Shown here piece after piece: positions 11,283 through 41,097 of a stretch of DNA of 64,000 nt (its first letter is position 1; each line of letters begins with the position of its first letter). Both the position numbers and the translations under genes were made by a program. Below the pieces are notes generated by a model. The model was not told the origin of the DNA. It ran no database searches and saw only the letters and a list, made by a program, of their open reading frames with translations. Origin of the DNA: a virus; IMG/VR virus record IMGVR_UViG_3300032323_001868, positions 1-64,000 of that record; one strand, given 5' to 3'.

Positions 11283-11564
11283 ATGAAACAGCACATATGG
11301 AAAGATAGTGCTTCATGTTTAGGTCTTGAAACTAACATCTTTTTTGATAAGTATGAAGATGATCCAACATTGCGTCTAGCAATAGATTCAATTTGTAGTT
11401 CATGTCCAGTTGCAAAGCAATGTTTTGCGGTAGGAGTTTCTGGAAAAGAGTGGGGTGTCTGGGGCGGTGTTTATATTGAGGCTGGCGAAATATCTAGAGA
11501 GTTTAATAATCACAAAAGTAAAAACGATTGGGCACAAACATGGAAAACATTGACAATGGATTAA
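11283..11564 (+). CDS. whiB: WhiB-family Fe-S transcription factor
   Basis: four Cys (C..ICSSCPVAKQC) and EWGVWGG. Confidence 0.9.
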   Translation: MKQHIWKDSASCLGLETNIFFDKYEDDPTLRLAIDSICSSCPVAKQCFAVGVSGKEWGVWGGVYIEAGEISREFNNHKSKNDWAQTWKTLTMD

Positions 11565-14828: not shown

Positions 14829-14829
14829 T

Positions 14830-18723: not shown

Positions 18724-18735
18724 TTTATTATTGTA

Positions 18736-19230: not shown

Positions 19231-19542
19231 ATACCTATTATGGCAGATATTGCGGGGTAAGTCAAGACTTATTTACATACTTAGTATAACAACTAGCACA
19301 GTATATAGCCTTAGAGGTAGCCTGGCTTGCCTCTGGCTGACCACAAATAGAGCAGTTGATACCTGTCATGCAGATAGGCCCATAAGAAGGTGGTTCTTGC
19401 ATACTCCAGAAACAGTATATCTAGACTCACCCATAGTTACGACTTGATCGTATTCTGCTTGGTGGTCGCAAAAATAACATTCTTCTTTGGTTTGTGACAT
19501 ATAATGATTATATCATATTGAAAATAATTTTACTTTGTGATT

Positions 19543-19830
19543 TTAAGAAAATCTTGCATCCCAGGTTTCTTGCCAAGATGTTGTATTATAAAATCCAGCG
19601 TCTACTGAGTTTGCTTCTTGATTATATAATCCTGCATCCACATATATTGCAGGAGGCTCTATAAAATTATCATCATAAACAGTGATAATAGGAACACTAT
19701 GCTCAGCCAGGACTGTATCTATTCCCATAAACACTGTTAGTTTTGGTATTGATTGCCTTATTATATTTGTATCTAAACCTAAATTTATATTAAGTTTAGT
19801 GATCTTTTTATCAACCACTAAGGTTGGCAT
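19543..19830 (-). CDS. hypothetical, probable virion-associated
   Basis: C-terminal DAG.YNTTSW..WD shared with 58042..58494. Confidence 0.55.
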   Translation of the reverse strand: MPTLVVDKKITKLNINLGLDTNIIRQSIPKLTVFMGIDTVLAEHSVPIITVYDDNFIEPPAIYVDAGLYNQEANSVDAGFYNTTSWQETWDARFS

Positions 19831-20183
19831 TAGACTGCTCCAGTTACATCATCTACTACGGTTATTGTTCCTGTCAAAACAGTATAAATAACATCTGGAT
19901 CGGGGGTAGTGTCAGTGATCTGAACATCATAAAAATATGTGCCAGCACTTAAGGTTCTACCAACTGCGGGAGTAATAAGGCACCTAACAACAGAAGGCTC
20001 AATCTTGGTGGCACCTGCTGTAGTTTTTGTTCCAGATGCTCCTCTTTGATTAGCGATAGTAAATGCAACAGTTTCATATCCAGTTATACTAAAATCAGTT
20101 CCGTCTTGATTCTTTAAGGAGACATCAAACTCGTGTGTATCACCACGATAATACTTAAAGTCATGATTGCCTGGAAATGCCAT
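19830..20183 (-). CDS. BppU-N/Ig-like virion protein
   Basis: RGDT..F.V..YFYDVQ..GTITV..DVT; paralog of 38700 and 48762. Confidence 0.6.
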   Translation of the reverse strand: MAFPGNHDFKYYRGDTHEFDVSLKNQDGTDFSITGYETVAFTIANQRGASGTKTTAGATKIEPSVVRCLITPAVGRTLSAGTYFYDVQITDTTPDPDVIYTVLTGTITVVDDVTGAV

Positions 20184-20261
20184 GATGCCCCTTTTCTTAA
20201 TCGATTATATCATTGTTTAAATGAGTTGTTTTAAAGCCAAAAATAGGCTTAAAGTTAGGCT

Positions 20262-20801
20262 CTAGACTACCCCTTGTATCTCCGACCTTATTGTAAAACC
20301 TAGGTACTTTTCTATAGCATCCAACTCAGTTCTATCTACAAATAGTCCTTCATAAGTAAACTGCTCAATGTTAAATGATTTTATTTCTGATTGTATTTTT
20401 TTAACATCTTCAAGTTGCTCTTCATACTTATCTAAGATAATCTTTTTATACTCTTCCTCAGAAAGTTTGTGTGCTTTTTGACCCTTACGCCATGAGTTAA
20501 AGTGACTTGCTACAAGATAACTTTTAGTGGCTTCTTCTGTGTTATTTCTAGTCAAACCAATAACCTTATCAAACATTGAAAACAGTTGATTTGGATCTGA
20601 GAATTCTTCCATGCGAGAAAACCAATTGCCAACCGTTTTGACCACTATATTATCTGTATCCTTAAGAAGTTTGTAGTCATCAGCAAATTTATGGCTATCT
20701 CTAAATGGCTCATTTATAATCATTAAATCTGAACTATATCCTACAGCCCTCAGTAGACTAGTCGAGCCAGACCTTGCTTGCGCCACAATTAAAACCTTCA
20801 T
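20262..20801 (-). CDS. sulfotransferase-like P-loop protein
   Basis: AQARSGSTSL, NEPF, TYE. Confidence 0.65.
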   Translation of the reverse strand: MKVLIVAQARSGSTSLLRAVGYSSDLMIINEPFRDSHKFADDYKLLKDTDNIVVKTVGNWFSRMEEFSDPNQLFSMFDKVIGLTRNNTEEATKSYLVASHFNSWRKGQKAHKLSEEEYKKIILDKYEEQLEDVKKIQSEIKSFNIEQFTYEGLFVDRTELDAIEKYLGFTIRSEIQGVV

Positions 20802-20863
20802 GATTATAGTATATCCTATCCTTTGCTTTTAAGTTCGGCGAAAAATAGAGTTAACAAACCACC

Positions 20864-21094
20864 CTAAGCCCTAAAAGGGCTATATCGGTTAATAGCCTGA
20901 TTCGCCATCCTATTAGCATCTTCTTCTGTATGGGTATATCCATATGTCAAAATATCATTACCACTAAGCAAGGTCCACTTCCAAGGTATTGGATCTAACC
21001 TAAAATTGGTTTCAAGTTTCTTGGGGCTTCTACCATTATTTGGACCCTTTTTATATCTAGAAACATGCTCCTCAATTACAACTTTAATATCCAC
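20864..21094 (-). CDS. hypothetical protein
   Basis: ORF track, AGG RBS. Confidence 0.5.
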   Translation of the reverse strand: MDIKVVIEEHVSRYKKGPNNGRSPKKLETNFRLDPIPWKWTLLSGNDILTYGYTHTEEDANRMANQAINRYSPFRA

Positions 21095-21594
21095 CTAAGC
21101 ACACATTTCTAGTATGGTAAAGCCTGCTACTTATCAAAGTTTTGCGGGATGGAGCATAGATAGCCTCATCACAAGCACACTTAAAAGACCATTCCCTACC
21201 AAAGAAATCATATACCGCACCCTTGGCGTTAGCATATTTGTTGGCTACAAAGGTTTCAAATGGATCTGGGATTTCGTAACTATTCAAAGGACACCTGTGT
21301 TTCTTCAATGTGTACATTACAATTTACACAAGTTATCCTGCCATCCAGGTCTGTATCAAATACATGCTTGCACTGCGTCATTTATCGCTCTATCATAATC
21401 CAGACCCAGAATAGGTCTAAGTTTATGGAGTAGCGCTCAATGCTAAAGCCTAGCCCGAAGCGCTTGAAGGAGCCACCGTAGTAGACCCAGTGGTTTTTGA
21501 TTTTAATTTCTTTATACATGTATCTATTGTCTCAAAATTTAGGGTATATGTCAATAGCCAAAAATGTATAATGATGCTGACAAATACTTAAAAC

Positions 21595-22221
21595 CTATCT
21601 TTTAATAAATATACAGTTAGTTTGATTATCGTAGGCAGTAAATTCCCTAGTTAGAACAAACCCATGGATGTCTAAAAAATCTATTACATCTTGCCTTACC
21701 CATTGGTCTTTCCAAAACTGTATATGCTCAACCTCTATATAGATGGTTTGCACTTTTTCTAGTAGATCAGTTGCTCCAAGAAGAACTTCCCTGTTGGCTC
21801 CTTCAACATCCATCCATAAAGATATATTTTCGTCTTTTAAATCATTAAAATATGAGTCTAAAGTTGAACAATACACTTCTACTGGATCGCCATTTACTCT
21901 CCAAGATAGATTAAAATCTTTTATACTATTGTGACCTGCATCTGCTGGATTAAAGGCGGTATCTATATTAAAAGAAATAACTCCATTGTAATCAGCCATA
22001 GCCATATGAACATAATCAAAACCAGAGATAGTATCTTTAAACTTGTTATAGACTGCTGGAGATGCTTCAAAGGCTATTGACTTTATTCCTTTATCAGACA
22101 TCGCCTTAGAATATTCAGCACCATGGGCTCCTACTTCAATAGATAGGGTTGGATTAAAGGATAGTGCTGTTTTAATATATTCGTATAAGGAATGCTCGTG
22201 AGACAGGGACTCTATGTTCAT
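21595..22221 (-). CDS. FkbM-family methyltransferase
   Basis: EVGAHGA, AFEAS, TLDS, MDVEGA..VL.G. Confidence 0.8.
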   Translation of the reverse strand: MNIESLSHEHSLYEYIKTALSFNPTLSIEVGAHGAEYSKAMSDKGIKSIAFEASPAVYNKFKDTISGFDYVHMAMADYNGVISFNIDTAFNPADAGHNSIKDFNLSWRVNGDPVEVYCSTLDSYFNDLKDENISLWMDVEGANREVLLGATDLLEKVQTIYIEVEHIQFWKDQWVRQDVIDFLDIHGFVLTREFTAYDNQTNCIFIKR

Positions 22222-22739
22222 AGAACAAAGTCTATCACAAATTTCGGGGGAGTCAAGAGCCCATCTCTATAATACCCTTAGTATCAAGACATAGTTTGCA
22301 TATCTCAAAGAACATGGTTCCAGAAGCATCTAGCCTATAGTCATAGTCACAGACATGTGGGGTTTTTCTCATATCATTAAAGCGTTTCCATGGGTCGTCA
22401 ATAAATTCATTCATATACTCATTATAGCCCATATGCCCCATAGCCAGAGAACTTTATCCCCTGGTTTATTTACATAGCATGCAGTAGAAGGGTGCTCTTA
22501 AGTTATCTGGTGATGTGACTATAACCTGATTGCATTTAGAGCATTTTGCAGTTACCAAACCATCGTCTTCTAACTTTGATATATGAAGAAATGGGGTTTT
22601 GGTATAGTATAGTTTGCTCATATACCATGTAAATGCTATAAGAATTATTGCTTCCATATGTCTATAGTAGCACATGAAGGTTAACAGAAATGTCCGATTT
22701 GGGTGGTTTGATAGCATAATAAATCTTACTGATATTTTT

Positions 22740-23460
22740 TAGATTTTCTTATGGTGGAGGAAAGTGGAGTGAAATGGAGTATGGAGCGCTTTTATATCTG
22801 GGATCGTAATGTCTTGGGGGCCCCAAACCTCCTATCACAAAACCTTCATATTGTCAAACCTTCATATCCCGATAGCGGATTATACCCCCAAACCATGGTT
22901 TTGTCAAACCTTTATAGCCTAAAAACCCCTATAAATTTTGTAGGATTTTGTGAGATTTTTGTAGGATTTTGCAGAAAAAAATATATAAAGGTTTGGTAAA
23001 TATTTAAAAAACCAGGGAAAAAGGTTTGTCTATCGTAATGTCTTTTATACTAGGGGGTTTGGTACTACTTCGTAATCCCCCGCCAAAAACGCAGGGGATC
23101 GTAATGTCTGATAGGACTATTTGTCTTTGTGAAAGCGGGGGAATTTAAGAGTAGAAACAATCTTACCTATAATAGGAATAGATCCCAAACCTTTATATTC
23201 TGGTTTCTCACTATGCTGACTAAAGGTTTGTCCAACAAAGTAAGGACCACCTTTTCTTGAGAAATAGTTTCTAGTCATAATACCATTATACACCTGGTTT
23301 GACAGAAATAAGGTTTTATGATATAAGGTTTGGCCATGAATGGGGAAAAATATTCGTTCATCGTAATAAAGTTTTGGGGAAAAATTATAACGGATCGTAA
23401 TAAGGTTTTGAGGTTTGATGGTTTGTACGATATGTCCGATTTGATATGATTCGACGTCTG
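22740..23460. repeat. repeat-rich, largely non-coding zone (AAACC/GGTTT about 20x, TCGTAAT 6x)
   Basis: direct reading; contains one probable 53-aa leaderless ORF (23117..23278, minus). Confidence 0.65.
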
Positions 23461-23479
23461 ATCGAACGTCCCGCCCCTA

Positions 23480-23752
23480 CTACCGATTATTCTCGTAGTA
23501 GTAGGTTAGGATTTCTTCTAATGAATCAAACTCATCTTCTTCGTCTGCACCAATAGACTCCATAAACACTCGCCATGTTTCTGCTACATAGCGTTCAGCA
23601 TCTTTGGTTGGTGTGACAAGACCCTCATGGGTTAGATATGCAATCGGCAATCCCAAGTCGTTGTACTGAATAAAATCTTGGAACTCCTCTTCGTCTCTGT
23701 ACTCTGCATACAGTTTGTTAAGGATTTCACACATCTTAGAAAAGTCGGTCAT
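23480..23752 (-). CDS. hypothetical early protein
   Basis: ORF track; FIQYNDLGLPIAY. Confidence 0.65.
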   Translation of the reverse strand: MTDFSKMCEILNKLYAEYRDEEEFQDFIQYNDLGLPIAYLTHEGLVTPTKDAERYVAETWRVFMESIGADEEDEFDSLEEILTYYYENNR

Positions 23753-23969
23753 GGTTATATTCTACTCTCTTTTGTTCTACTAGGTCAAGTTGAAACTCTG
23801 CGGATTCTAATACTTCTAGAGCCCTGCGATAAACTAGATACGGAAGACTGCGTGACATATAGACACCAACTTTTTCTAGGTCAAGATGAAAGTCACTAAG
23901 TAGTACGCCAATCTTCTCTGCAACCTTTTCTTCCTTGCTCTTGGTGTCAGACCTGCTGATTCTATACAT
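23736..23969 (-). CDS. hypothetical early protein
   Basis: GAGGAG RBS. Confidence 0.65.
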   Translation of the reverse strand: MYRISRSDTKSKEEKVAEKIGVLLSDFHLDLEKVGVYMSRSLPYLVYRRALEVLESAEFQLDLVEQKRVEYNHDRLF

Positions 23970-24060
23970 AGTACTCCTCTCAATCCATTATATCAAAAAA
24001 GTGGAGAGGGGGCAAGCCCACCACAAACCTGCCCCCGTCTCATTATGTGGACGGTTGACC

Positions 24061-24432
24061 CTATACCGTCTCTTGCTCAGCGGAAATCATATCCAGGTGA
24101 TAACTAATAAACTTATCAATTGGCTTGGTTAGGTCACCAATAGTAACAGTATTATTAATTAGGTCGACTTCCTTGTACTCATACTGTTCCTCATGATTTA
24201 CTTCCCCAACATAAATACCATAACCAGTCTCAGTGTTATGGTCTTCTTGCAGGGCATTGATAATGATACGGGTAGCATATGCTGTATCATGCATCCGAAT
24301 GCGTGGCATTGCAAGGTCAAGGGCCCGTGCTAGGTCCATGACGCCAGAATCCCCACCCCAATGTGAGTATAGATTAATATTCTGGTTTGGGTCTTCAGTA
24401 GTTACGATAGTGAAATTGGTTCGTGCTCCCAT
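24061..24432 (-). CDS. hypothetical early protein
   Basis: GAAAGGA RBS; MGAR..LYSHWGG..YATRI. Confidence 0.7.
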   Translation of the reverse strand: MGARTNFTIVTTEDPNQNINLYSHWGGDSGVMDLARALDLAMPRIRMHDTAYATRIIINALQEDHNTETGYGIYVGEVNHEEQYEYKEVDLINNTVTIGDLTKPIDKFISYHLDMISAEQETV

Positions 24433-24495
24433 GGTAGGGTCCTTTCGGTAGTGTGGTTTAAATCAATGATATCAAATAGCGCTGCCTGTGTCCAA

Positions 24496-24828
24496 TTACT
24501 CATCAGGATCCAAATCCCCCTCAAAGTCGATAACTACTTTAGTAACTCTGCCTTCGTTATTTACCTGTACAAAAACAGGGTAGACGCCATCGCCGTAGCC
24601 AGTAGAAAATGCAACGGCTAATCCATTAGAAATCTCACCAAACTCATTTTTAACAGTAGTAGCAGATATACCTTGATAAGAGTACTGACCTTCTTTGCCT
24701 TCTAACTCCCATGGTTCGTTATGGCATGTGTCATAGCCATCTAGGTAGCACGGGTCACCTACAATTGCTTGTCCGCTGTCTACATGGAAAGACCCTGCAT
24801 AAGTTAAATCATTTAGTGTGGTGTTCAT
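24496..24828 (-). CDS. DUF4241-like protein
   Basis: VDSGQ..GDPCY...GYGDG.YPV. Confidence 0.6.
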   Translation of the reverse strand: MNTTLNDLTYAGSFHVDSGQAIVGDPCYLDGYDTCHNEPWELEGKEGQYSYQGISATTVKNEFGEISNGLAVAFSTGYGDGVYPVFVQVNNEGRVTKVVIDFEGDLDPDE

Positions 24829-25247
24829 GCTTTCTCCAATTCTAGTAGTTCTTCAAGTGTACAACAATTTGGGCATTTGTCAAACTCGCTGTATCTATCA
24901 TTAATTAGTTGGCCATCGTCTTCAGTCTCTGTACCGCAGCCCTCACAGCAATACCAGTAAGAGCCCATCTTGATTTGAATCGTGGTATTTTCAGGAACAG
25001 GCTTTTCGCTAATAAGATAACCAATCCTATTTACATAGTGCCAGCCTGACCAAATATAGGTGCCACCATCATCGCCATCTCCATACATCCAGATACGGTT
25101 TTCTGGCTTTGACTTGACATACTCTACCTCGTCACCGTAGGTTTCAAACATCAAACCATCTAATGAGGCATACTCATCATAGTTATTAACCATGAATTTG
25201 AATTGCTCATCTGCTTCTTCAAATGTCATTTCGATAAAGTTGTCCAT
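24825..25247 (-). CDS. hypothetical protein with C-terminal zinc ribbon
   Basis: FETYG, GWHYVNRIGY, CEGC..CPNC. Confidence 0.65.
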   Translation of the reverse strand: MDNFIEMTFEEADEQFKFMVNNYDEYASLDGLMFETYGDEVEYVKSKPENRIWMYGDGDDGGTYIWSGWHYVNRIGYLISEKPVPENTTIQIKMGSYWYCCEGCGTETEDDGQLINDRYSEFDKCPNCCTLEELLELEKA

Positions 25248-25418
25248 TATAGTTTCCCCTCAATGTTGGTGGAGTCACAGTCTGCACAGTGCCCATTGGA
25301 TACATCATCATACCAGTCTGTCTCTACATCTTCAAGTTCCCCCGCAGAATTATATATACCTAACTTGTGAGATGTTTCATCATACCAAAACTTATTAGTC
25401 TGGCCACAATCAAGGCAC

Positions 25419-25700
25419 TTAGGCATTCTTGTTAGTCCTATCTGATATAGCAAATGCTAGTTGATATGTAAGGGCATAGACACTAGACAAAGCGTCCATG
25501 TATCCTGAATTATATAAGCGCTCAACGGTGTCTTCATATTCCTCATCAGAACCAAGTTCATCAGAGTTCTCCAGCAGAGGCACGAGTATCTTCTCACACT
25601 CATACATCATATTCTTAAGTTCACCATGGAGGATATCAGTACCTGACTCTCCTAGGTCTACGAGTTTTTGCAGTCTTGGGTTTAGTTGTGTTGTTTCCAT
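25419..25700 (-). CDS. hypothetical early protein, predicted leaderless
   Basis: ATG falls exactly at predicted +1 of promoter 25707-25728. Confidence 0.65.
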   Translation of the reverse strand: METTQLNPRLQKLVDLGESGTDILHGELKNMMYECEKILVPLLENSDELGSDEEYEDTVERLYNSGYMDALSSVYALTYQLAFAISDRTNKNA

Positions 25701-25706
25701 TACTCT

Positions 25707-25728
25707 ATCATATCCTGTGCCACTGACA
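25707..25728 (-). promoter_or_regulatory. PafBC/RecA-NDp-type promoter
   Basis: TGTCAG-TGGCACAGGA-TATGAT. Confidence 0.7.
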
Positions 25729-25860
25729 AAAGGTGGCGGGTATTATAAATCTCAGCCTCTTTAGTCCTATAGAAATGATGACTATTAACATAGTCAATCT
25801 TCTCAAGGTCTTGCATAAGACTTATCTCATGTATCTTCATATACTCAATGAAGGCATGCA

Positions 25861-26043
25861 TTAGATTACTTCTTCATCTAGTTCGACTTCATCTTCTTCA
25901 TACTGTTCATCTACCTCAATAGAATAAACTTCAGGGAATCCGTAGTCCTCGTACTCCCAGCCCATCTTTTCTGCTTCTTCTTCGTTGTCTGCTTCTACTT
26001 CGTAGTTGTATTCTACAATCACCTTCAGGTCATACATTGGCAT
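25861..26043 (-). CDS. acidic hypothetical protein
   Basis: GAAAGGA RBS; EVEADNEEEAE. Confidence 0.65.
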   Translation of the reverse strand: MPMYDLKVIVEYNYEVEADNEEEAEKMGWEYEDYGFPEVYSIEVDEQYEEDEVELDEEVI

Positions 26044-26662
26044 TGTGGGATTTCCTTTCTGTGGTCTTAATATTAATTATAAGGGTTGGTGTTGATTTTT
26101 ACAACTTTTGAGGATGTGATACTAATCACAGGGGCCATCTGTTCTGGCTCTACCGCTGTTCTTACGACAAAGGTATCCAATGAGCAAACACAGGCGGGAT
26201 CGTGATTAGGAGTCTTATTAGTGATAACTTCCATCAGGGCATCACAATCAGTACAAACATAACTATACTTGGTCCACATAGGCAACCTCCATTAAATAAG
26301 CATCAGTATCACATACATCACATAGGTGTACATAATCACTGTCGTCCCAATTAGACATACACATGTTACACCTGGTCATCATCCCTCCCAATATTGCATA
26401 ATGGTATTCATTGTGATATGGAGATTGCAATCACAGTCTTCTCCACCCATGTTCTCATGGAACTCAAAGTGTGATAGGTTGTCCTCATAAATTTCCATTA
26501 CGAGTTCTGATATTGTGTATGGTTTGTAGGTGGTAGTCATATATTAATTGTAGCCTAGAACCTGGGAAAAATCAACTCTATCGTAATTACTTTTTTAATT
26601 GTATTTATTTAGTTACTGATAAGTATGTCCTATTTGTACCATTTTGGAACGTCCCGCATTTG

Positions 26663-26736
26663 CGATCTGTACGGGACTTGAACCCGTGATCTCTACCGTG
26701 ACAGGGTAGCGAATTAACCAACTATTCTAACAGACC
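26663..26736 (-). tRNA. tRNA-Asp(GTC)
   Basis: GGTCTGT/ACAGATC, CTACC-CTGTCAC-GGTAG, GGTTCAAGTCC; no CCA. Confidence 0.9.
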
Positions 26737-26738
26737 AG

Positions 26739-26767
26739 TGAGCAGTTTTATTTCATGCTCAGGAAAT
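26739..26767 (-). ncRNA. H-type pseudoknot repeat, copy B
   Basis: ATTTC-C-TGAGCA-T-GAAAT-AAAAC-TGCTCA. Confidence 0.72.
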
Positions 26768-26771
26768 TGTA

Positions 26772-27788
26772 TCATGCTAGTTGCATGACATTCTGCACAA
26801 CTTTCAGCAGACGATTCTTTTCTGCGTTGATAGCAGGGTCAAATCCACTTGCACTTGCAAGGATAGATTCGTTATTGCCACCTCGTGCTGTACGATACCA
26901 GTCAAGGCGTTCTGTAAGTGCATTGAAAGCGCCCCATGCAGAGCCAGCAATCATGCCGTTAAATTCGCCTGTGTAAATATCGTTGATAATATCTACCTTG
27001 TTCTCCCACTTCTTGACGGCACCCTTAGAATCTTTTTCAGGCTTAGGGTAAGCAGCGAGAATAATATCGTTGAATTGCTTAGCATTGACTTCCTTCTCGA
27101 ACATAGCCTTAGCCATGATGTCAAATTCGTCCATGTATGCATTAGCAAGACCAAGAGTCTCACGAGCAATCTGCACTTTACCATTGGCAGTCTGCGTGTG
27201 GCGAATCTTGAATGATTGCTTGATACCATTCTTCTTCTTGCGTGAGCCTAGTGCAAGATTAAGAGTATTAGCGCACACCACACGAACAGGTGTAATGCTT
27301 GCTTGAATAGCGATTGAGCCATCGTGTGATGTGTTGATGAGCAAATAAGTCTTTACCTTATCTGCAACACCGCTAGGGTCTAGTACAGTCTCACGCTCTA
27401 ATGCAAGAGAGCCGAATACTACACGCCCACCCTTGATAGCGCCAGCGGTTTCCCAACGACCACCACCATCTAGGATATTGTCACCGAATGAGAATAAGTC
27501 TTCATTCTGCAATACATGATAACGCTCACCAACTACACCAAGAACATCTGTCTGGGTATTAGTTGTAGGGTTAGTGCGTACGACATATTGGTATTCTTTG
27601 TCGCTTGTTAAGTGTGATGGAATTGGCATTTCTTCAAGACGAACATTCCAACCATTGAGGTTTGCAGCCTCTAGCATTTCTGCGGTTGTTTTTTCTTCTG
27701 TGAATACAGTACCCAATCCATGCCATGCAGGTTCACGGAAAGATGCAAAAGATGCCTTGCCGTTTTGTGATTCTAGGTCATGTGCCAT
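26772..27788 (-). CDS. DUF932 / TIGR03299-like phage protein
   Basis: REPAWHGLG, Y..LQN, ETAG...GG..VF, SHDGS, TPVRVVCANTL, RHT. Confidence 0.85.
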   Translation of the reverse strand: MAHDLESQNGKASFASFREPAWHGLGTVFTEEKTTAEMLEAANLNGWNVRLEEMPIPSHLTSDKEYQYVVRTNPTTNTQTDVLGVVGERYHVLQNEDLFSFGDNILDGGGRWETAGAIKGGRVVFGSLALERETVLDPSGVADKVKTYLLINTSHDGSIAIQASITPVRVVCANTLNLALGSRKKKNGIKQSFKIRHTQTANGKVQIARETLGLANAYMDEFDIMAKAMFEKEVNAKQFNDIILAAYPKPEKDSKGAVKKWENKVDIINDIYTGEFNGMIAGSAWGAFNALTERLDWYRTARGGNNESILASASGFDPAINAEKNRLLKVVQNVMQLA

Positions 27789-27820
27789 GAGTGTTTCTCC
27801 TTTTTGTTGTTGATAATATA

Positions 27821-27842
27821 ACTATACACCAAGCCAGCGACA
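27821..27842 (-). promoter_or_regulatory. PafBC/RecA-NDp-type promoter
   Basis: TGTCGC-TGGCTTGGTG-TATAGT. Confidence 0.6.
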
Positions 27843-27953
27843 TATGCAAATCAGGATAGTTAGATGTGTACAAATCGGACATTTTTAAGGGTGTCGTAAT
27901 TCACATCGTAAATACTTGACAAGATCAACTTTTGCGGGACGTGCAATAAAAAG

Positions 27954-27984
27954 TGAGCCGTTTACATGGACAATGCTCAGGTCC
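27954..27984 (-). ncRNA. H-type pseudoknot repeat, copy C
   Basis: GGAC-C-TGAGCA-TT-GTCC-ATGTAAAC-GGCTCA. Confidence 0.62.
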
Positions 27985-28030
27985 CTTGCCTAGTTTAAAG
28001 ACATTCGACATGTCTATTAGTAGCCCCCTA

Positions 28031-28483
28031 CTAAATATTATCCTCTGCCTGAATTGAGCGGGTATCAACATTGAAATCATCGATTGAATAATCAAATGAG
28101 TCAACACTGAATTCAAGTGTGTTGGCCACATCATCTGCGTCAACATCAAATGGTACTTCAATCTCAATCTCAAACTCTACAACTGCATTAACAGTTACAG
28201 TCTTGGTTAGTTCAAAGTCACCAATCTGTGCAAACATCTCTGCAACCTCGTGAGTGAACTCACGGTTACCAAGGCATTCAATAACATATTCTTTGATTGC
28301 ATCCTTGGTTGCTTGGTGTGCTCGTTGTTCTGCATACAATGATTGTGAGTGTTCGGATGAACGGTCCTGCAATGAGACAATCATCGCATCCTTCTTCTCA
28401 ATTAATTCCTGCAGCGCTACAGCCTGATTCTGAAGAAATTCTCGTGTCATGTAGTATTCATTGGTTAGTACTGGCTGGTCCAT
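28031..28483 (-). CDS. hypothetical early protein (coiled-coil N half)
   Basis: GAAAGAGG RBS. Confidence 0.7.
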   Translation of the reverse strand: MDQPVLTNEYYMTREFLQNQAVALQELIEKKDAMIVSLQDRSSEHSQSLYAEQRAHQATKDAIKEYVIECLGNREFTHEVAEMFAQIGDFELTKTVTVNAVVEFEIEIEVPFDVDADDVANTLEFSVDSFDYSIDDFNVDTRSIQAEDNI

Positions 28484-28515
28484 GGGGGCCTCTTTCTGTT
28501 GTTGTTATTAATATA

Positions 28516-28537
28516 AGTCTAGCAGCGGGTACCGACA
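28516..28537 (-). promoter_or_regulatory. PafBC-type promoter, full consensus
   Basis: TGTCGG-TACCCGCTGC-TAGACT. Confidence 0.75.
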
Positions 28538-28576
28538 AATGCAACTTAATGGTCTTAATAGTCTTACATATTGGGA

Positions 28577-28592
28577 TGTGATTAATCTCACA
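28577..28592. promoter_or_regulatory. CRP/GlxR-type box
   Basis: TGTGA-TTAATC-TCACA. Confidence 0.7.
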
Positions 28593-28616
28593 CTGCACGT
28601 CGCAAAAAACAGTGAG

Positions 28617-28645
28617 TGAGCAGTTTTATATCATGCTCAGGATAT
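28617..28645 (-). ncRNA. H-type pseudoknot repeat, copy D
   Basis: ATATC-C-TGAGCA-T-GATAT-AAAAC-TGCTCA. Confidence 0.72.
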
Positions 28646-28649
28646 TTAA

Positions 28650-28820
28650 TTACTTAGATGTTTTCACCATTGCAAATCGGTGTGAGCCGTTTGCTAACTT
28701 TAGTGAAACTCTAGTAAGTTTAGAGTTGATAGGTGTGAAGTTGCTAATGCGACCAGTAACACCTGTCTTGCTTGTGGTGAACAGATCACCGATTTGATAT
28801 GTATATCCGCCTAGTGTCAT
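28650..28820 (-). CDS. small beta-rich (SH3/KOW-like) protein, 56 aa
   Basis: MTLGGYTYQIGDLFTTSKTGVTG..; AAAGGA RBS; paralog of 29537..29698. Confidence 0.7.
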   Translation of the reverse strand: MTLGGYTYQIGDLFTTSKTGVTGRISNFTPINSKLTRVSLKLANGSHRFAMVKTSK

Positions 28821-28858
28821 TTGTTTTTTCCTTTTGTTAGTGGTGGTATTAAATTGTG

Positions 28859-28887
28859 TGAGCAGTTTTGGCTCTTACTCAGGAGGT
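28859..28887 (-). ncRNA. H-type pseudoknot repeat, copy E (short stem 1)
   Basis: CTC-C-TGAGTA-A-GAG-CCAAAAC-TGCTCA. Confidence 0.55.
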
Positions 28888-28989
28888 CTGCTTCTTTAGG
28901 TCTGCAGTAACCTTGCTCTATAGTATTTCTATTATCGCCCTAATCAGCCTGGCGAAATGAGTGGGGCTTTTACACCCCACCCAACTTTG

Positions 28990-29412
28990 CTAGAGGTAGC
29001 GAGCCACCGCATTGTATGTTGAAGTATTAACTACTTCTTCATCTGTCATCTTGAGGATACGAATTGCGTTTGTGATTTCTTCCTTCTGCTCACGATATGT
29101 GTGCTGATGGATAACCTCGAAATCCTTAGTTGGCTCTGTTGGCATATCCTTTTCGGATACTGTCAAATCGAAGTCAATGTTAAGGCAGTTATTCCATGAA
29201 CGATATGAAGTGCGGAAGTTTTCTGCCTTCTTGATGTTTGCTACTGCATAGTCAATAAGTTCCTTCTTATACTTCTCATACTGCTTTTGATACTTTGCTT
29301 CGTTGGCTTCTTGTGATGTGTAGTCTGCTTCTAGTTTAGCAAGTGCGCCTTCTAGTGCCTTGATTACCTTTGGTGTTGCGATTTTAACTGAGATTGCTTT
29401 TGCTCTTGACAT
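28990..29412 (-). CDS. hypothetical early protein
   Basis: AAAGGA RBS, strong codon bias. Confidence 0.75.
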   Translation of the reverse strand: MSRAKAISVKIATPKVIKALEGALAKLEADYTSQEANEAKYQKQYEKYKKELIDYAVANIKKAENFRTSYRSWNNCLNIDFDLTVSEKDMPTEPTKDFEVIHQHTYREQKEEITNAIRILKMTDEEVVNTSTYNAVARYL

Positions 29413-29459
29413 GGTGTTCCTTTTCTTTGGTGGTTGATATTTCTATTATAGGGGGTGGA

Positions 29460-29487
29460 TAAGCCTTTTTGCAACTTGCTTAGGTTG
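29460..29487 (-). ncRNA. H-type pseudoknot repeat, variant copy G
   Basis: CAAC-C-TAAGCA-A-GTTG-CAAAAA-GGCTTA (compensated stem 2). Confidence 0.6.
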
Positions 29488-29536
29488 GTTCACGCCTCTT
29501 GTTTATAGTGGCTGTACGCTAACCACTATGAAAGGC

Positions 29537-29698
29537 TTACGCCTTCCAAGTTGTCCAGCGTGTTGAGCCATTTACATCTAACTTAACACGAACTGTGTCC
29601 TTTGATGTTGGTACGATTTCAACGATTGTGCCTGTGACCTTTGACTTCTGTGAAGTGTAAGTGTCGCCGACCTTGTATGTTGCTACTGCTACTGTCAT
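29537..29698 (-). CDS. small beta-rich (SH3/KOW-like) protein, 53 aa
   Basis: MTVAVATYKVGDTYTSQKSKVTG..; GAAAGGA RBS. Confidence 0.7.
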   Translation of the reverse strand: MTVAVATYKVGDTYTSQKSKVTGTIVEIVPTSKDTVRVKLDVNGSTRWTTWKA

Positions 29699-29804
29699 GT
29701 TTTTTCCTTTTCTGTGTTGGTTTGTTATATTTCTAGTATATCCGAGAAATCTCAGAAATACAATTCCTAGCCTAGAGAATCTCATATTTTGAGACCCTTT
29801 CCCC

Positions 29805-29820
29805 TGTGATATAGGTCACA
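29805..29820. promoter_or_regulatory. CRP/GlxR-type box
   Basis: TGTGA-TATAGG-TCACA. Confidence 0.7.
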
Positions 29821-29887
29821 AGTTGCCTGTGATAAATAGGATAAGGAAACATATCCCTAGCCATAGTATGAATTTGTCCATAGTTCC

Positions 29888-30610
29888 CTACTTTTTGGTT
29901 GCACTAAATACTATATCAGATTTCTCATAAATACACAACTTGCAACTAGCGCATGCAGACCCTTTCTGTGAGATAAGTGGAATAGCCTTTTTATTCTCAG
30001 GGCACTTAGCCCCAGGCTTGCCTGTTAACTCCTTCATGTCTTCTTGTCCTATTAAGAAATTTTTGGCAAGGTATGCAAGGGAGATATTATGATCTGCTTT
30101 AAGTCCTATACCTATAGCCTTATTATCGCTATCTGTGGAATAGTATAGTGAAAGATTAGGAATGTCTTTTAGAATAAGCGCTGCAGACTTAACTCTGGTA
30201 TATACCCAGAATTGAATGTCTGGATACTTATCAACAACTACCTTCCATGCATATGCATAAGTATCATTAAAGAAATCTCCGTCCCAGTGGATACGGAATT
30301 GCTTAGGTGCATTGCGCTTATCGCACTCTGCATTAAAATCATTAATCATTTCATTAAGTAGACGGACCATAGTTTCTCCGTCTGCATTGCGTAGTAGTTC
30401 CCAGTTATGCAATAGGTTTTTCTTTACTGTTGGGAATATCTTTTCTAACTTGCCTGCATAGCAAACACTTTCGCAGACACTAGTAGCGCCAGGACATGAA
30501 TAGTTTTTACCTGCAGGTAATCCGAATGTGTTAGCGATACTTGCTTGTTTTCCATTAGGGGTGACGGCATTAGCAACTTTTCTATCTTTAGAGCGTAGTA
30601 GTTTAGTCAT
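29888..30610 (-). CDS. GP88-family protein (Cys-cluster, radical-SAM-like)
   Basis: FGLPAG..CPGAT..C...CYA, FRIHWDGDF, FW.YTR, C..C.LC. Confidence 0.75.
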   Translation of the reverse strand: MTKLLRSKDRKVANAVTPNGKQASIANTFGLPAGKNYSCPGATSVCESVCYAGKLEKIFPTVKKNLLHNWELLRNADGETMVRLLNEMINDFNAECDKRNAPKQFRIHWDGDFFNDTYAYAWKVVVDKYPDIQFWVYTRVKSAALILKDIPNLSLYYSTDSDNKAIGIGLKADHNISLAYLAKNFLIGQEDMKELTGKPGAKCPENKKAIPLISQKGSACASCKLCIYEKSDIVFSATKK

Positions 30611-30755
30611 GGTGGGACCCTCTTTCTTTTTTTAATTTTAGCATTAGCGACTGACATTTCTTTCTGTCATATTTCTTTTTATTAGGTACCGCAGAGGCCG
30701 CATTGCTACGGCGTAATTCCATAAGCCTGCGTAATTCCTCGGGTGTTTTTTTCAT
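30603..30755 (-). CDS. small basic protein (LRRSNAA motif), leaderless
   Basis: TTGTAT-N17-TAAAAT-N6-ATG. Confidence 0.55.
   Translation of the reverse strand: MKKTPEELRRLMELRRSNAASAVPNKKKYDRKKCQSLMLKLKKERGSHHD
30635..30656 (-). promoter_or_regulatory. PafBC/RecA-NDp-type promoter
   Basis: TGTCAG-TCGCTAATGC-TAAAAT. Confidence 0.68.
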
Positions 30756-30826
30756 ATAATAATTTTAGCAAAAATCAGGGAAAAATACAAGTTGGTCTTA
30801 ATTAGGGTAAATCGGACATTTGTGGT

Positions 30827-30840
30827 GCGGGACGTCCCGC
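30827..30840. repeat. perfect palindrome GCGGGACGTCCCGC (cassette-boundary box)
   Basis: half-sites recur at 23466, 26649, 27934, 32135, 33342. Confidence 0.7.
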
Positions 30841-30845
30841 CTTTG

Positions 30846-31088
30846 CTACTCGTCTTTTTCTATATAAACATAGAGGTCAACATATGTGTCGTGTGCAATT
30901 GTTATTGTATCTGGTTCACCATACACATCAACACAATCGATAAAGTAATTGTCTCCAGTTGAATCAGAATTGATATCAATTACTTCGATGAGTTCATCAT
31001 CAATCTTGATTAGATCATCAGGCATCAGAGAACCTGGTGTTAATTTATCTGCCCATACTAGATCCATGTTGTTTATTGTATCAGCCAT
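30846..31088 (-). CDS. hypothetical early protein
   Basis: ORF track. Confidence 0.6.
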   Translation of the reverse strand: MADTINNMDLVWADKLTPGSLMPDDLIKIDDELIEVIDINSDSTGDNYFIDCVDVYGEPDTITIAHDTYVDLYVYIEKDE

Positions 31089-31164
31089 TTATTCGTCCTC
31101 TTCGCTAGAAATACATTCATAACAATCACAATATTTTGAGTGGGGAATAAAAAAATCTTCCATA

Positions 31165-31500
31165 TTACCCCTCATCATATTCTAGTGAGAGTGGGAAGTC
31201 ATCAGACCCATCTTGCCAGTCATCGGCTGGCTCAATAAATACATCAAGGTGATGCTGGTCTACGATAGCGTGTGCAGGTGCTTGAGTTTCTCCACGATAA
31301 AGAATCTGAAAGTCACCAACCTTCGGCATGTCAATCATGCGGTCATAGTCCTCATCATAGAAGGCGTCAATGGCTTCAATGCAAGGTTGCACCATTTCTG
31401 CGGGGACTGGAGGATAGTGATTAGCCTTAAGGTGATAGAGAATCTGAGTCTCCAAGTCAAGGACTTCTTCTTTAATTCCTAGTGCTGTAACTGAACCCAT
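31165..31500 (-). CDS. hypothetical early protein
   Basis: HL.ANHYPPVP..MV.PC.EAI, IVDQHHL. Confidence 0.7.
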   Translation of the reverse strand: MGSVTALGIKEEVLDLETQILYHLKANHYPPVPAEMVQPCIEAIDAFYDEDYDRMIDMPKVGDFQILYRGETQAPAHAIVDQHHLDVFIEPADDWQDGSDDFPLSLEYDEG

Positions 31501-31501
31501 A

Positions 31502-31717
31502 TTACTTACCCCCTACATTTCCATTACGATAAAAGATTTTGGTGTGCATTTTGCCATTAGGCTCTGACAAGTTAATTGTGCGATATTCTTTTGCATCTCC
31601 ATAGTCGTTGCATGCCATGAACGCACCAACGGCAGAAAGAGCATCACTATAGCGACCAACCCATTCAGGGCTAGTGCTATTGTCATTAGTTGAAGTAACT
31701 GAGTATAAGTATTCCAT
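31502..31717 (-). CDS. hypothetical early protein
   Basis: AAGGAG RBS. Confidence 0.65.
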   Translation of the reverse strand: MEYLYSVTSTNDNSTSPEWVGRYSDALSAVGAFMACNDYGDAKEYRTINLSEPNGKMHTKIFYRNGNVGGK

Positions 31718-32008
31718 TAGTTGTAACTCCTTTTACATTCTGAGCATAGATAGTTTAATTTGCAATAGCAACCTACTGCGTTTGGGCGGAGCATATCCGT
31801 TTCATAGTATTCGTCATAGAAATCCATACTAGTTAGCCTCTTTTGTTAGGAATAGTTGGTCAATGTAGTCATAGCCTATCATGGCTTCTACCTCTCGGTC
31901 AAGGTAGCAACGGAAGCAATAGAGTTCGGTTACATCTACTGCATTTTCATTACACTGCATGCATACATGTGCGGTCATGGGAGCCTTCTTTCTTAAGTTG
32001 ATATAAAT

Positions 32009-32030
32009 ATCCTATCATATGGGGGTGACA
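32009..32030 (-). promoter_or_regulatory. PafBC/RecA-NDp-type promoter
   Basis: TGTCAC-CCCCATATGA-TAGGAT. Confidence 0.62.
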
Positions 32031-32069
32031 AAGTGAAGTTCATAAGCCAAGTTCTGCGAAAATTAATGG

Positions 32070-32085
32070 TGTGAACTTAATCACA
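32070..32085. promoter_or_regulatory. CRP/GlxR-type box
   Basis: TGTGA-ACTTAA-TCACA. Confidence 0.7.
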
Positions 32086-32094
32086 CTTAATGCC

Positions 32095-32134
32095 TGTGGA
32101 TAACTACCTGGCTTGTGGATAACCCTGTGGAAAA
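32095..32134 (-). promoter_or_regulatory. three DnaA boxes
   Basis: TTATCCACA at 32095 and 32114, TTTTCCACA at 32126 (minus strand). Confidence 0.72.
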
Positions 32135-32150
32135 CGGGACGTTGAAAATT

Positions 32151-32179
32151 TGAGCAGTTTTAGATCGTGCTCAGGATTT
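32151..32179 (-). ncRNA. H-type pseudoknot repeat, copy F
   Basis: AAATC-C-TGAGCA-C-GATCT-AAAAC-TGCTCA. Confidence 0.68.
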
Positions 32180-32331
32180 TAGTTTATCGCTTTTGATTAA
32201 AACGACTTAGTGTAACCAACTCATTGTGTAGTCTAGAATTTTCTTTGACTAGTTCTATGTTTTGTTTCCAGAATAAAAACATAACTGTTATTGAGCCAGC
32301 AAGTGCAATTATGATTGCAAGTAAATCCCAG

Positions 32332-32523
32332 TTAGTTAGCATTTCTTGTCTCCATTTCCTCGCATGCTTGTGTAAATCTATCACGATTAAAGTTTGGATT
32401 GTCGCTTGCAAAAAAATCTGCAAAGTCATTTACCAAATCTTCCCACCAGTAATTATCTATCATGGCTTTTTGGTATCCTGAAAGAATATCTGCAACTGCT
32501 ACATAGTCTTTGCGTGTCATCAT
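32332..32523 (-). CDS. hypothetical early protein
   Basis: MTRKDY..VA..DNPNF..DRF..AC. Confidence 0.7.
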   Translation of the reverse strand: MMTRKDYVAVADILSGYQKAMIDNYWWEDLVNDFADFFASDNPNFNRDRFTQACEEMETRNAN

Positions 32524-32729
32524 TAGTCTGCCACCTTTAGAATTGCGTACGAGCCGTTTTCGTTGATTTCATCTAACGCAGGCTGAATGCGTGGTGCAAG
32601 AACTTCTTTTAGCAGGCCTTCAAGCATTGTTTTACGCATTGTTGATTCTAGTGCAAGAATCTGCATTCCTACTGGATGAGTTTCGTCAATTTCTGTAACG
32701 AACTTTAGAGAGTGTTCAACTTTTACCAT
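32523..32729 (-). CDS. hypothetical early protein
   Basis: TAATG coupling. Confidence 0.65.
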   Translation of the reverse strand: MVKVEHSLKFVTEIDETHPVGMQILALESTMRKTMLEGLLKEVLAPRIQPALDEINENGSYAILKVAD

Positions 32730-32911
32730 TAGAGTGTAGCCTTTCCACGAAGTGTTCCACGAACGCCGAGTGCGTCACATGATAGTTTTACAGATACGCC
32801 AGCAGGTAGCGTGTTAGGATAAGTGCTGATAAATTGTGCAACTGCACCTCGTGAGGGTAGTTGAATGGTTTTAACTGTACCATTAAAAGTTTCTAGATTT
32901 ACTTTATACAT
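32729..32911 (-). CDS. hypothetical early protein, paralog of 34854..35027
   Basis: shared KV.L..G..I.L.S..V..FI..Y..TL..VK..CD.LG..G.L.G. Confidence 0.7.
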   Translation of the reverse strand: MYKVNLETFNGTVKTIQLPSRGAVAQFISTYPNTLPAGVSVKLSCDALGVRGTLRGKATL

Positions 32912-32912
32912 A

Positions 32913-33128
32913 TTAGTTTTCCTTTCTTACTGCAACTGTACGGAATGTTTTGCGACCCCATGTGTTAGAACCGCTGTAAGGTGCGATTTCTACAAGGTAG
33001 GTGTCGCAATCTGCATACCATACCGCTTTAGGGTGTGGCTCTGCACTTATGATTTCTCCACGCATTGTTTTGGAGATATATTCTTTTCCCACAAGTAGGG
33101 ACTGGACATTGTAGACATTTGCAGACAT
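32913..33128 (-). CDS. hypothetical early protein
   Basis: first gene after promoter 33164-33185. Confidence 0.65.
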   Translation of the reverse strand: MSANVYNVQSLLVGKEYISKTMRGEIISAEPHPKAVWYADCDTYLVEIAPYSGSNTWGRKTFRTVAVRKEN

Positions 33129-33163
33129 AAGTTTGTCTCACTTTCTTTTTTGTTAATATAGCA

Positions 33164-33185
33164 AGTGTAGCATTTTTGGGTGACA
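33164..33185 (-). promoter_or_regulatory. PafBC/RecA-NDp-type promoter
   Basis: TGTCAC-CCAAAAATGC-TACACT. Confidence 0.6.
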
Positions 33186-33223
33186 ATATCAAATTGAGAA
33201 TCGGACATATCAGACAAATTGAA

Positions 33224-33239
33224 TGTGAGGTTGGTCACA
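33224..33239. promoter_or_regulatory. CRP/GlxR-type box
   Basis: TGTGA-GGTTGG-TCACA. Confidence 0.7.
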
Positions 33240-33273
33240 TCGTTTTGCTACTTTATTTAATTTTATAGATAGA

Positions 33274-33314
33274 ATCTTAGCATAAGTAATCTTAAAAGTC
33301 AAGACGACACGCCG
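33274..33314 (-). promoter_or_regulatory. sigma-A promoter with upstream WhiA-type GACAC site
   Basis: CGGCGTGTCG-TC-TTGACT-N17-TAAGAT. Confidence 0.55.
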
Positions 33315-33470
33315 TAAATGTAATGTGATTTACACCACAGGGGGACGTCGTGCACGTCGCATTTTTATGCAATGATCTGCATAGTCATTCAGTCAAGTGT
33401 AACCAGATTGAATAAATAAATAACCCAAATAAAAAAAAGAATGCAGCGTTACCATTTAAATAAAATTCTT

Positions 33471-34163
33471 TCATCGCTCACGCACCTCCGCTAATTCGTT
33501 GCGAAATGATTCCGCAGTCTCATGTTGTTGTTTCAATGTGAGCGAAGCCCACAAGTAACCCATTAGGTAAGCGTTACCACTATCTACATCGCCACGAATA
33601 TCTTGTGACATAGATTTTACATATTGAAGTAATTGCATATCTGCCATTTTTATATCTCCCAACAATTTTCGCAGGTAAATTTTGTGAAGTCTCTATCTTT
33701 CAATAGAATCTCCATGAAGTTGTTATCGCATACAGAGCAAGCGATTAAGTAAGTATCAGCCAGACGATAACGCCATGGCTCTGATTTAGACAAGAGACGA
33801 TTCTCTTGCACTTCTGAAGCGATTAGAATTGACATTAGTGTTGCTCCTCGCAATCTTCTACATAGTTGAATTCGCAGAAGTAGCAACCCATGGTTTCGCC
33901 ATGTGCCTTGCATACATACTTGAACTGTGATTCCTCACAGCAATAACGCATTTCATCTTTGATTAGATAAAATTCATTTTGGTCAATGTAGGTATCTATC
34001 ATCAGTTACCTGCCTTTCTGCAACGAATACCATCGTTGCCTACATAGCGATTTAGACCTGCAACGAAAGTAATTGTTTCGTTACAGTAGAAGCAATCGCC
34101 ATTACGATTAGGGAAGTGCAGAGTAGGCTTAAGGCTATCTGCGGGGGCATATAGTGAGTTCAT
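33471..34163 (-). other. run of four tiny, mostly Cys-rich ORFs (33471..33647, 33650..33835, 33835..34002, 34002..34163)
   Basis: TAATG/TGATG overlaps, GAAAGG RBS. Confidence 0.6.
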
Positions 34164-34193
34164 GTGAACCCCTTTCTTTAACTTGATATAACT

Positions 34194-34215
34194 ATCTTAG
34201 CATGGGGGTCTGACA
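34194..34215 (-). promoter_or_regulatory. PafBC/RecA-NDp-type promoter (leftward)
   Basis: TGTCAG-ACCCCCATGC-TAAGAT. Confidence 0.68.
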
Positions 34216-34428
34216 AATTGACTCAGACATTACGGAATAAAACGGACATTTAGTACAAAACTTTTTATGTGATTAGCGCCACATTTCGGGGGATTCAATA
34301 ACATTTCCATAACAATCTTAACACTATCGGCGTGTCGATTTGACAACGTGCTGGCACGTCCAGTGTGATGTAGAACACATGTGATGCATACCACAAAGTC
34401 CAGAATGTCCGATTTGTACCCCTCAAAA

Positions 34429-34450
34429 TGTCGGTGGTATATGTTAGGAT
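34429..34450 (+). promoter_or_regulatory. PafBC-type promoter, full consensus (rightward)
   Basis: TGTCGG-TGGTATATGT-TAGGAT. Confidence 0.75.
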
Positions 34451-34482
34451 AGTTACTATCAAGATAAAGAAAGGTGGTCTCC

Positions 34483-34659
34483 ATGACTACATTAACACAT
34501 ACACATACACCTAACATGGGTGCAATATCCGAATACAACGAAACTAAGTACACTTTCTGTACAGATTGTGAGCAAAATATAGAATCGTTCTATATTGAAT
34601 CAGACGGAGACCGCTTAGGTATGTGGTCTGATTGGAGATTGTCAAACATATGTTGGTAG
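34483..34659 (+). CDS. hypothetical early protein (CxxC)
   Basis: GAAAGGTGG RBS after promoter. Confidence 0.6.
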   Translation: MTTLTHTHTPNMGAISEYNETKYTFCTDCEQNIESFYIESDGDRLGMWSDWRLSNICW

Positions 34660-39946: not shown

Positions 39947-40456
39947 ATGCAAAATATCGGTATAACAGACTCCCAGGATGGCCGTAAGCCAGACGCCCCA
40001 ATCATCGGTACAGCAACAGGTGGAAATGCACAAGCATCAGTTGCTTTTACTGCCCCATCAACAACAGGTAAAGGTACTGGAAGTCTTACATATACCGCAA
40101 CATCTAATCCAGGATCTATAACAGGCACAGCATCTTCGTCACCAATTACAGTAACTGGTTTGGCAAATGGAACAGCATATACTTTTACAGTTACACTAAG
40201 TAACGGAACACTTACATCAGATCCATCTTCTGCTTCTAACTCTGTTACTCCAGTTGCTCCACCATTCTTCCCACCATTCTTCCCAGGATTTGGTCCATTC
40301 TTCCCACCGTTCTTCCCACCATTCTTCCCGTTCTTCCCACCGTTCTTCCCATACTTCCCACCGTTCTTCCCGTTCTTCCCGTTCTTCCCACCGTTCTTCC
40401 CGTTCTTCCCACCATCATTTGGACCATGGTTCCCATTCAACGCAACTAGACGATAA
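39947..40456 (+). CDS. fibronectin type III domain protein with (PPFF)n Pro/Phe tail
   Basis: PDAP..ATGGN.QASV.FTAP..Y.AT..VTGL.NGT.YTFTV..S..SNSVTP then 60-aa repeat; leaderless. Confidence 0.82.
   Translation: MQNIGITDSQDGRKPDAPIIGTATGGNAQASVAFTAPSTTGKGTGSLTYTATSNPGSITGTASSSPITVTGLANGTAYTFTVTLSNGTLTSDPSSASNSVTPVAPPFFPPFFPGFGPFFPPFFPPFFPFFPPFFPYFPPFFPFFPFFPPFFPFFPPSFGPWFPFNATRR
40259..40438 (+). repeat. coding tandem repeat of CCR(CCR)TTCTTC units
   Basis: 9/12-nt units; 25 Pro and 29 Phe in 60 codons. Confidence 0.9.
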
Positions 40457-40480
40457 TAGTTTAAATGTAGGGGGTTTGTA

Positions 40481-41053: not shown

Positions 41054-41097
41054 TAAAGATTTAATGTGCTGTGATATAATTAAAAAAGGGGTGTTTT

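Follow-up and report, generated by a model that had tools for sequence, protein, structure and literature searches.

The 64,000-nucleotide stretch of DNA analysed here (the window) corresponds to positions 1-64,000 of the IMG/VR virus record IMGVR_UViG_3300032323_001868, a linear record of 89,761 bp with 37% GC and an estimated completeness of 82%. Within this window, eight promoters carry a tGTCgg-like element, and at all of them (8/8) the element stands exactly 10 nt upstream of a TAnnnT -10 hexamer. In sequence, in spacing and in the lack of a conserved -35, these sites fit the published consensus for promoters dependent on the activator PafBC, so that by motif they belong to the RecA-NDp type, as an earlier note on this DNA had proposed. 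We consider it reasonably probable that the eight phage promoters are read by the sigma-A RNA polymerase of the host together with host PafBC. The motif described in vivo for PafBC is tGTCgg(N10)tA(N3)T; it contains a -26 element but lacks a -35, and the helix-turn-helix domain of PafB reads the GTC triplet at -28 to -23 via two arginines (PMC8635444). PafBC itself sits between the DNA and region 4 of sigma-A, an arrangement termed 'sigma adaptation' for which a parallel to T4 middle promoters has been drawn (PMC8635444), and it is activated by single-stranded DNA (PMC11804915). One cited study deals with pafBC and phage resistance.

Eight promoters of fixed geometry in one gene block

The window was searched for the pattern TGTCRS-N10-TANNNT, with 100 shuffles as the null. 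Nine matches were obtained vs 2.2 ± 1.6 expected, and nine or more were reached in 0 of the 100 shuffles. Eight of the nine are packed within 8.7 kb (25707-34450), seven of these on the gene strand, and they correspond in position and strand to the eight sites of the earlier note, all of which were thus recovered. The ninth match, at 38339 (-), has no ribosome-binding site and no start codon behind it and is probably due to chance. In the remaining 25.8 kb of the 89.8-kb record the pattern gave 0 matches. The earlier note had noticed no such site outside the island, and the match at 38339 is the one exception.

The promoters serve a block of about 35 small genes (25419..34659), which includes a DUF932 gene, a GP88-family gene and a weak RegB-like open reading frame (ORF; 28990-29412); most ORFs of the block are without a known family. 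The block appears to open with a divergent control region, both arms of which are promoters of the TGTC class. The rightward arm is a TGTCGG-N10-TAGGAT promoter (34429..34450, +), followed by a start codon at 34483 and a small ORF that extends to 34659. The other seven promoters lie on the minus strand. A TGTCAG-N10-TAAGAT promoter with an extended -10 (TGC) at 34194..34215 would drive 34002-34163 and the small ORFs behind it. It is followed by two promoters of the TGTCAC type, both with an extended -10: TGTCAC-N10-TACACT at 33164..33185, which has in addition a TTGATA -35 at 17 bp and would drive 32913-33128 and the next ORFs, and TGTCAC-N10-TAGGAT at 32009..32030, predicted to drive 31829-31978 and the next ORFs. 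The GP88-family gene (29888-30610) is preceded by a TGTCAG-N10-TAAAAT promoter with an extended -10 (30635..30656), and an ORF of 150 amino acids (28031-28483) by a TGTCGG-N10-TAGACT promoter with both an extended -10 and a TTGCAT -35 (28516..28537). Upstream of the DUF932 gene (26772-27788), behind which lies a tRNA-Asp gene (26662-26736), we found a TGTCGC-N10-TATAGT promoter with a TTGCAT -35 (27821..27842). The last promoter, TGTCAG-TGG-N7-TATGAT (25707..25728), stands before the ORF 25419-25700.

A start codon lies 6-35 nt downstream of each of the eight sites (8/8), so that all of them point into genes, as previously claimed; the two described as exact TGTCGG sites are indeed those at 28516 and 34429. 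At seven of the eight the leader measures 24-35 nt and ends in a AAAGAAAGG-type ribosome-binding site. The arrangement at 25707 is different, as had been noted: the ATG, at 25700, is placed 7 nt past the -10 and falls on the expected +1, and the message would therefore be leaderless. This layout is also that of leaderless promoters in genomes of the 'Candidatus Planktophila' ('Ca. Planktophila') type. Regarding the core elements, an exact extended -10 (TGn) directly precedes TAnnnT in 6/8 sites, and 3/8 have a usable -35, either TTGCAT or TTGATA with a 17-bp spacing.

An actinophage from freshwater

The only recognisable transcription factor found in the phage is encoded by a WhiB-like gene (11283..11564, +), which marks an actinobacterial host. 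Matches of the GP88 protein come almost entirely from actinophages, with 283 Mycobacterium and 101 Streptomyces phage records among 392 (384/392) at about 54% identity. The best matches of DUF932 are mainly actinophages as well, and the portal protein is 47-48% identical to those of large Streptomyces siphoviruses. Judged by the WhiB gene and these three sets of protein matches, the phage is an actinophage. The sequencing runs that contain the block come from 16 studies and are metagenomes of lakes or other fresh water, with no RNA run among those listed, and a megablast search of the block against cultured phages gave no match.

The element is conserved across related lake phages

The GP88-family protein has 221 relatives in IMG/VR, and 80 of these loci were fetched, 884 kb in total. 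In these loci the TGTC pattern occurred 686 times on the gene strand vs 42 times on the opposite strand. The distance from TGTC to TANNNT was 16 nt in 784 pairs, vs 20 pairs at 15 nt and 59 at 17 nt, for a background of about 80. The logo derived from 616 distinct sites reads a-w-w-TGTCAG-t-S-S-c-nnn-TG-n-TAnaaT. The two positions that had been left free in the search were occupied by A (85%) and G (86%), the extended -10 positions by T (60%) and G (71%), and no upstream position reached 0.5 bit, which indicates that a -35 is not conserved.

A second analysis was anchored independently of TGTC, on an extended -10 plus a downstream start, and yielded 728 candidates. TGTC was found at exactly -16 in 300 of them (41%), while no other 4-mer exceeded 3%; among the TGTC-bearing sites, 269/300 (90%) read TGTCAG. 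A TTG at the -35 position was present in only about one third of the anchored sites. Upstream of GP88, TGTCAG and T-A---T were invariant in 60 distinct sequences in which the spacer and the inner -10 positions vary. Furthermore, each of three complete relatives (112-119 kb) has its sites restricted to a single block of 10-12 kb. By these counts, TGTCAG-N10-TANNNT is a conserved and rigidly spaced promoter element.

PafBC and the same box in candidate hosts

We infer that the phage probably infects a low-GC actinobacterium of fresh water, of the acI/'Ca. Planktophila' kind. In a sample of the class Actinomycetia, HTH_PafC was detected in 375/401 genomes, about 25 of which measure 1.3-1.5 Mb. 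Sampling across the whole phylum showed WYL genes in 172/201 genomes, most small genomes being without them, and several low-GC genomes of that sample had no box at recA. Both tallies take in some genomes flagged as unpublished, none of which is named here.

The 25 small Actinomycetia genomes each carry exactly one TGTC-N12-TANNNT box upstream of recA (25/25), the commonest form being TGTCAG-TGG...TGC-TACCTT, with an extended -10 (TGC). As far as motif and spacing go, this architecture is that of the phage sites (compare 25707 and 34429). Adjacent pafB-pafC genes were found in the five small genomes checked for WYL (5/5). One small genome, G559, is the only one named by the RecA search, its RecA sharing 94% identity with a 'Candidatus Planktophila sp.' protein from a cluster with 1,316 members. 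In this genome the gene order is pafB, pafC, tatC; its PafB has its closest solved relative in M. smegmatis PafB (E 3e-42) and retains the 'RMFERDK' arginines. The earlier note had made its reading depend on WYL activators in host or phage; pafB-pafC is indeed present in the likely hosts, and WYL is absent from the phage.

A matrix was built from 25 host sites only. With it, the phage sites at 30635 (20.3 bits), 28516 (19.9 bits), 25707 (19.1 bits) and 34194 (18.7 bits) rank at the top, and the matrix is noisy, since shuffled genomes occasionally score similarly. Additional matrix hits at 24742, 89534, 89086 and 31548 were dropped, as they lack either TGTC or a -10.

Some further observations were made in bacterial genomes. 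In G559, a gene for a PD-(D/E)XK nuclease (Cas4/RecB-like) is divergent from pafB-pafC (G559:C1:657676-658473, +) and has a TGTCGG-N10-TAnnnT match at its start. In two other 'Ca. Planktophila'-type genomes, PafBC-type promoters cluster in one region of 20-40 kb (G460:C1:405001-440000 and G428:C1:383001-430000), with the ATG 6-7 nt past the -10. The genes behind them encode a DNA methylase, a GHKL ATPase, a CAAX/Abi protease, a trypsin-like peptidase and an RNase H-fold protein, and by this gene content the region resembles a PafBC-controlled defence island. A low-GC genome (G024) with true pafB-pafC has TGTCAG boxes immediately upstream of two genes, one AddB/AdnA-like and one of DUF763, and TGTCGC before recA; it was rejected as a host model, being Aquicultor-like and not a lake plankter. 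The WYL gene of another low-GC genome (G179) was rejected as PafBC, since its product is a YafY-like regulator of a rare stand-alone kind, encoded next to an ERCC4 nuclease.

Direct searches for the host were also carried out. The scan of species genomes with WhiB returned only phage contigs misbinned in metagenome-assembled genomes labelled Acidimicrobiaceae, Methylococcus, Saccharibacteria and Chitinophaga, and the WhiB protein against 201 genomes (E 1e-12) returned only those same contigs. The bin labelled Acidimicrobiaceae (G001) holds at least four contigs of the lake-phage family at about 34% GC vs about 71% at pafBC, and is therefore chimeric. The tRNA cluster of the phage showed a uniform 78-87% identity across the phylum, with no host signal, and the tetranucleotide signature was not decisive. 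A comparison of 15.5 kb of phage DNA with five small genomes gave tRNA matches only, and an acI 16S probe sequence had 0 matches in the 201 genomes.

How the promoters may be read

If host PafBC acts on these promoters, the TAnnnT -10, mostly with an extended -10, would be combined with a TGTCAG or TGTCGG element 10 nt upstream that stands in for the -35. The PafBC heterodimer of the host would be lodged between the -26 element of the phage promoters and region 4 of sigma, as in sigma adaptation. With PafBC active only when bound to single-stranded DNA, the block (DUF932, GP88 and about 30 tiny ORFs) would be coupled to the DNA-damage or foreign-DNA alarm of the cell, and the extended -10 may provide some basal activity independent of PafBC. 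By analogy with Streptomyces phage Jay2Jay (see below) and from its gene content, we infer that the block is early. The host-alarm interpretation of the earlier note stands in its sequence-level part, namely the published motif and geometry, an actinophage, and the same recA box in likely hosts that bear pafBC. Its other option, a PafBC mimic carried by the phage itself, is not supported, as no WYL domain was found in the phage record or in five complete relatives.

Several observations weigh against host PafBC as the reader. The host itself gave no signal in misbinned contigs, tRNA similarity, k-mer signature or DNA similarity, and many small low-GC Actinomycetota outside Actinomycetia are without WYL genes. 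Two of the phage sites read TGTCAC and one TGTCGC, TGTCAC being absent from the host sites collected. With six full extended -10 elements and three usable -35 elements, the promoters might fire without an activator. A phage-encoded reader may exist, given that most ORFs are of no known function, and the strong canonical promoters on the same strand leave room for a cascade in which the TGTC class would be an activator-dependent 'middle' class.

These last points lead to a different reader. TGTCAG might be recognised by a phage-encoded adaptor or another host factor, similar to MotA/AsiA of T4, a possibility that we regard as unlikely. In such a scheme the genes behind canonical promoters would be expressed first, and one of their products would redirect the sigma-A polymerase to the -26 element. 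The geometry, with a box near -30, a sigma-A -10 and no -35, also suits T4 middle promoters (PMC8635444). Canonical promoters without TGTC are indeed found in and beside the block on the same strand (window 15400-30800). Two are perfect TTGACA-N17/18-TATAAT promoters of canonical sigma-A type, at 22907 (22879-22907, -) and 17320 (17291-17320, -); a TTGCAA-18-TATAAT promoter at 29474 and a TTGATT-17-TACAAT promoter at 26575 (26547-26575, -) have the same canonical look, and a further canonical sigma-A promoter lies at 30762-30790 (-). Since these TGTC-less neighbours look canonical, the phage has two promoter classes. It also has dozens of small ORFs without a known family from which an adaptor might come, and its WhiB belongs to a protein class that binds sigma region 4.

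On the other hand, Pfam and PHROG sweeps of 80 small ORFs, most of them orphans, revealed WhiB as the only transcription factor among the best 25 families per library, with no other DNA-binding, sigma or anti-sigma family and no MotA/AsiA-like protein, and sigma-70 region 2 was not found in the phage record. The element equals the host recA box down to TGTCAG-TGG and the spacing, a copy that a phage-specific factor would not need. Besides, the TGTC class occupies both arms of the divergent region that apparently opens the block.

Quite improbable, in our view, is that the sites are constitutive extended -10 sigma-A promoters, in which TGTCAG would either serve a shut-off repressor as its operator or act as a decoy by titrating host PafBC. 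A -35 is not indispensable to extended -10 promoters, and TGn precedes the -10 in 6/8 window sites and in 60-71% of the family sites. In Jay2Jay, the frame of a TTGnnn -35 plus TGnTAGACT has TGTC in only 4 of about 14 cases, so the promoter frame can work without the element. In contrast, the lake phages hold an element of about 10 bits whose spacing is never off by 1 nt in more than 600 sites, and this points to a contact tied to the polymerase, not to an operator that stands by itself. Neither a repressor nor an integrase was recognised in the phage, and host recA promoters join the same element with TGn. Other readings were rejected on the logo: a CRP/GlxR half-site, as there is no second half-site, a Streptomyces antibiotic regulatory protein (SARP) direct repeat, as there is no 11-nt upstream repeat, and an extracytoplasmic function (ECF) sigma promoter, as the -10 is of sigma-A type.

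Other features of the window

At several of the canonical promoters the ATG lies about 7 nt past the -10, a leaderless arrangement that is typical of actinobacteria. Another word, ATGTCCGATTTGTAC, also recurs: when up to 3 mismatches are allowed, it is matched 12 times vs 1.9 expected, in the window region 22690-45596. These matches occur on both strands, mostly upstream of the promoters, for example at 27868-27882 (-) and 34405-34419 (+). In the intergenic gaps of window 26540-34200, a conserved hairpin TGAGCA...TGCTCA opens each cassette and is accompanied by GGGACGT-type and ATTACGA words. Auxiliary genes at 1-15500 and 39947-48018 encode a thioredoxin, HSP20, a pyrimidine-dimer glycosylase, a staphylococcal-type nuclease and a PnuC-like transporter, together with DUF7455 and several 2-oxoglutarate (2OG)-Fe(II) oxygenases.

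Implications

To our knowledge, only chromosomal DNA-repair regulons have been described to involve PafBC and sigma adaptation, and in full-text searches of the literature we found no paper describing PafBC-type promoters on a phage. If the promoters depend on PafBC, an abundant family of lake phages (221 IMG/VR relatives) would have borrowed a WYL-type sensor of single-stranded DNA to time its own genes, a strategy distinct from a phage-encoded sigma factor or adaptor. It would also provide a sequence signature for the host assignment of uncultured actinophages and natural promoter variants for studies of the -26 element, and would give PafBC a place in the conflict between phages and the most abundant bacteria of fresh water. 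A bolder idea, which we put forward only tentatively and hold to be rather doubtful, is that the sharing of one alarm by phage and host is no accident: the genes of a probable counter-defence block (DUF932, GP88 and orphan ORFs) would be placed under the promoter type of the putative PafBC defence region of the host. The phage genes would then fire whenever the cell raises its PafBC-driven defences, and the dense array might compete for a limited pool of PafBC and blunt the host response.

Comparison with known systems

The phage sites share with PafBC (RecA-NDp, recA P1-type) promoters a tGTC(g/a)g exactly 10 nt before TAnnnT, an invariant GTC core and the lack of a conserved -35; recA of the likely host group is preceded by this box, and the 25707 site is leaderless as host ones are. 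They differ in forming a phage-borne array of 8-10 promoters in about 10 kb, which roughly equals the number of pattern matches on a whole 1.4-Mb host chromosome, and in driving small ORFs of no known function instead of repair genes. Moreover, the norm in this putatively PafBC-dependent phage class is TGTCAG and not TGTCGG, and an extended -10 is usual.

T4 middle promoters, with a MotA box at -30 and a sigma-70 -10, resemble the lake-phage promoters in that a box at about -30 substitutes for the -35 and a distinct gene set is served. They differ in that no MotA/AsiA-like protein was recognised among the best 25 families per library in the lake phage, and in that its box is identical to that of the host regulon and not phage-specific. 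The stoperators of Cluster A mycobacteriophages are asymmetric repressor sites spread genome-wide, not tied to a -10 and accompanied by a cognate repressor; they were ruled out, as the present sites are confined to one block, keep a constant spacing to the -10, and no repressor was recognised.

By portal and DUF932, the nearest cultured relatives are Jay2Jay and its kin (Samistivirus, Stanwilliamsviridae; Streptomyces phages). Both phages have a leftward block of small genes with DUF932, followed by ribonucleotide reductase (RNR), portal and capsid genes, and the extended -10 frame TGnTAnnnT is common to both. Jay2Jay, unlike the lake phage, keeps a TTGnnn -35 in its TGnTAGACT promoters, and TGTC occupies its spacer position only in the few cases given above. 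By this comparison, the lake family has replaced the -35 with a fixed TGTCAG.

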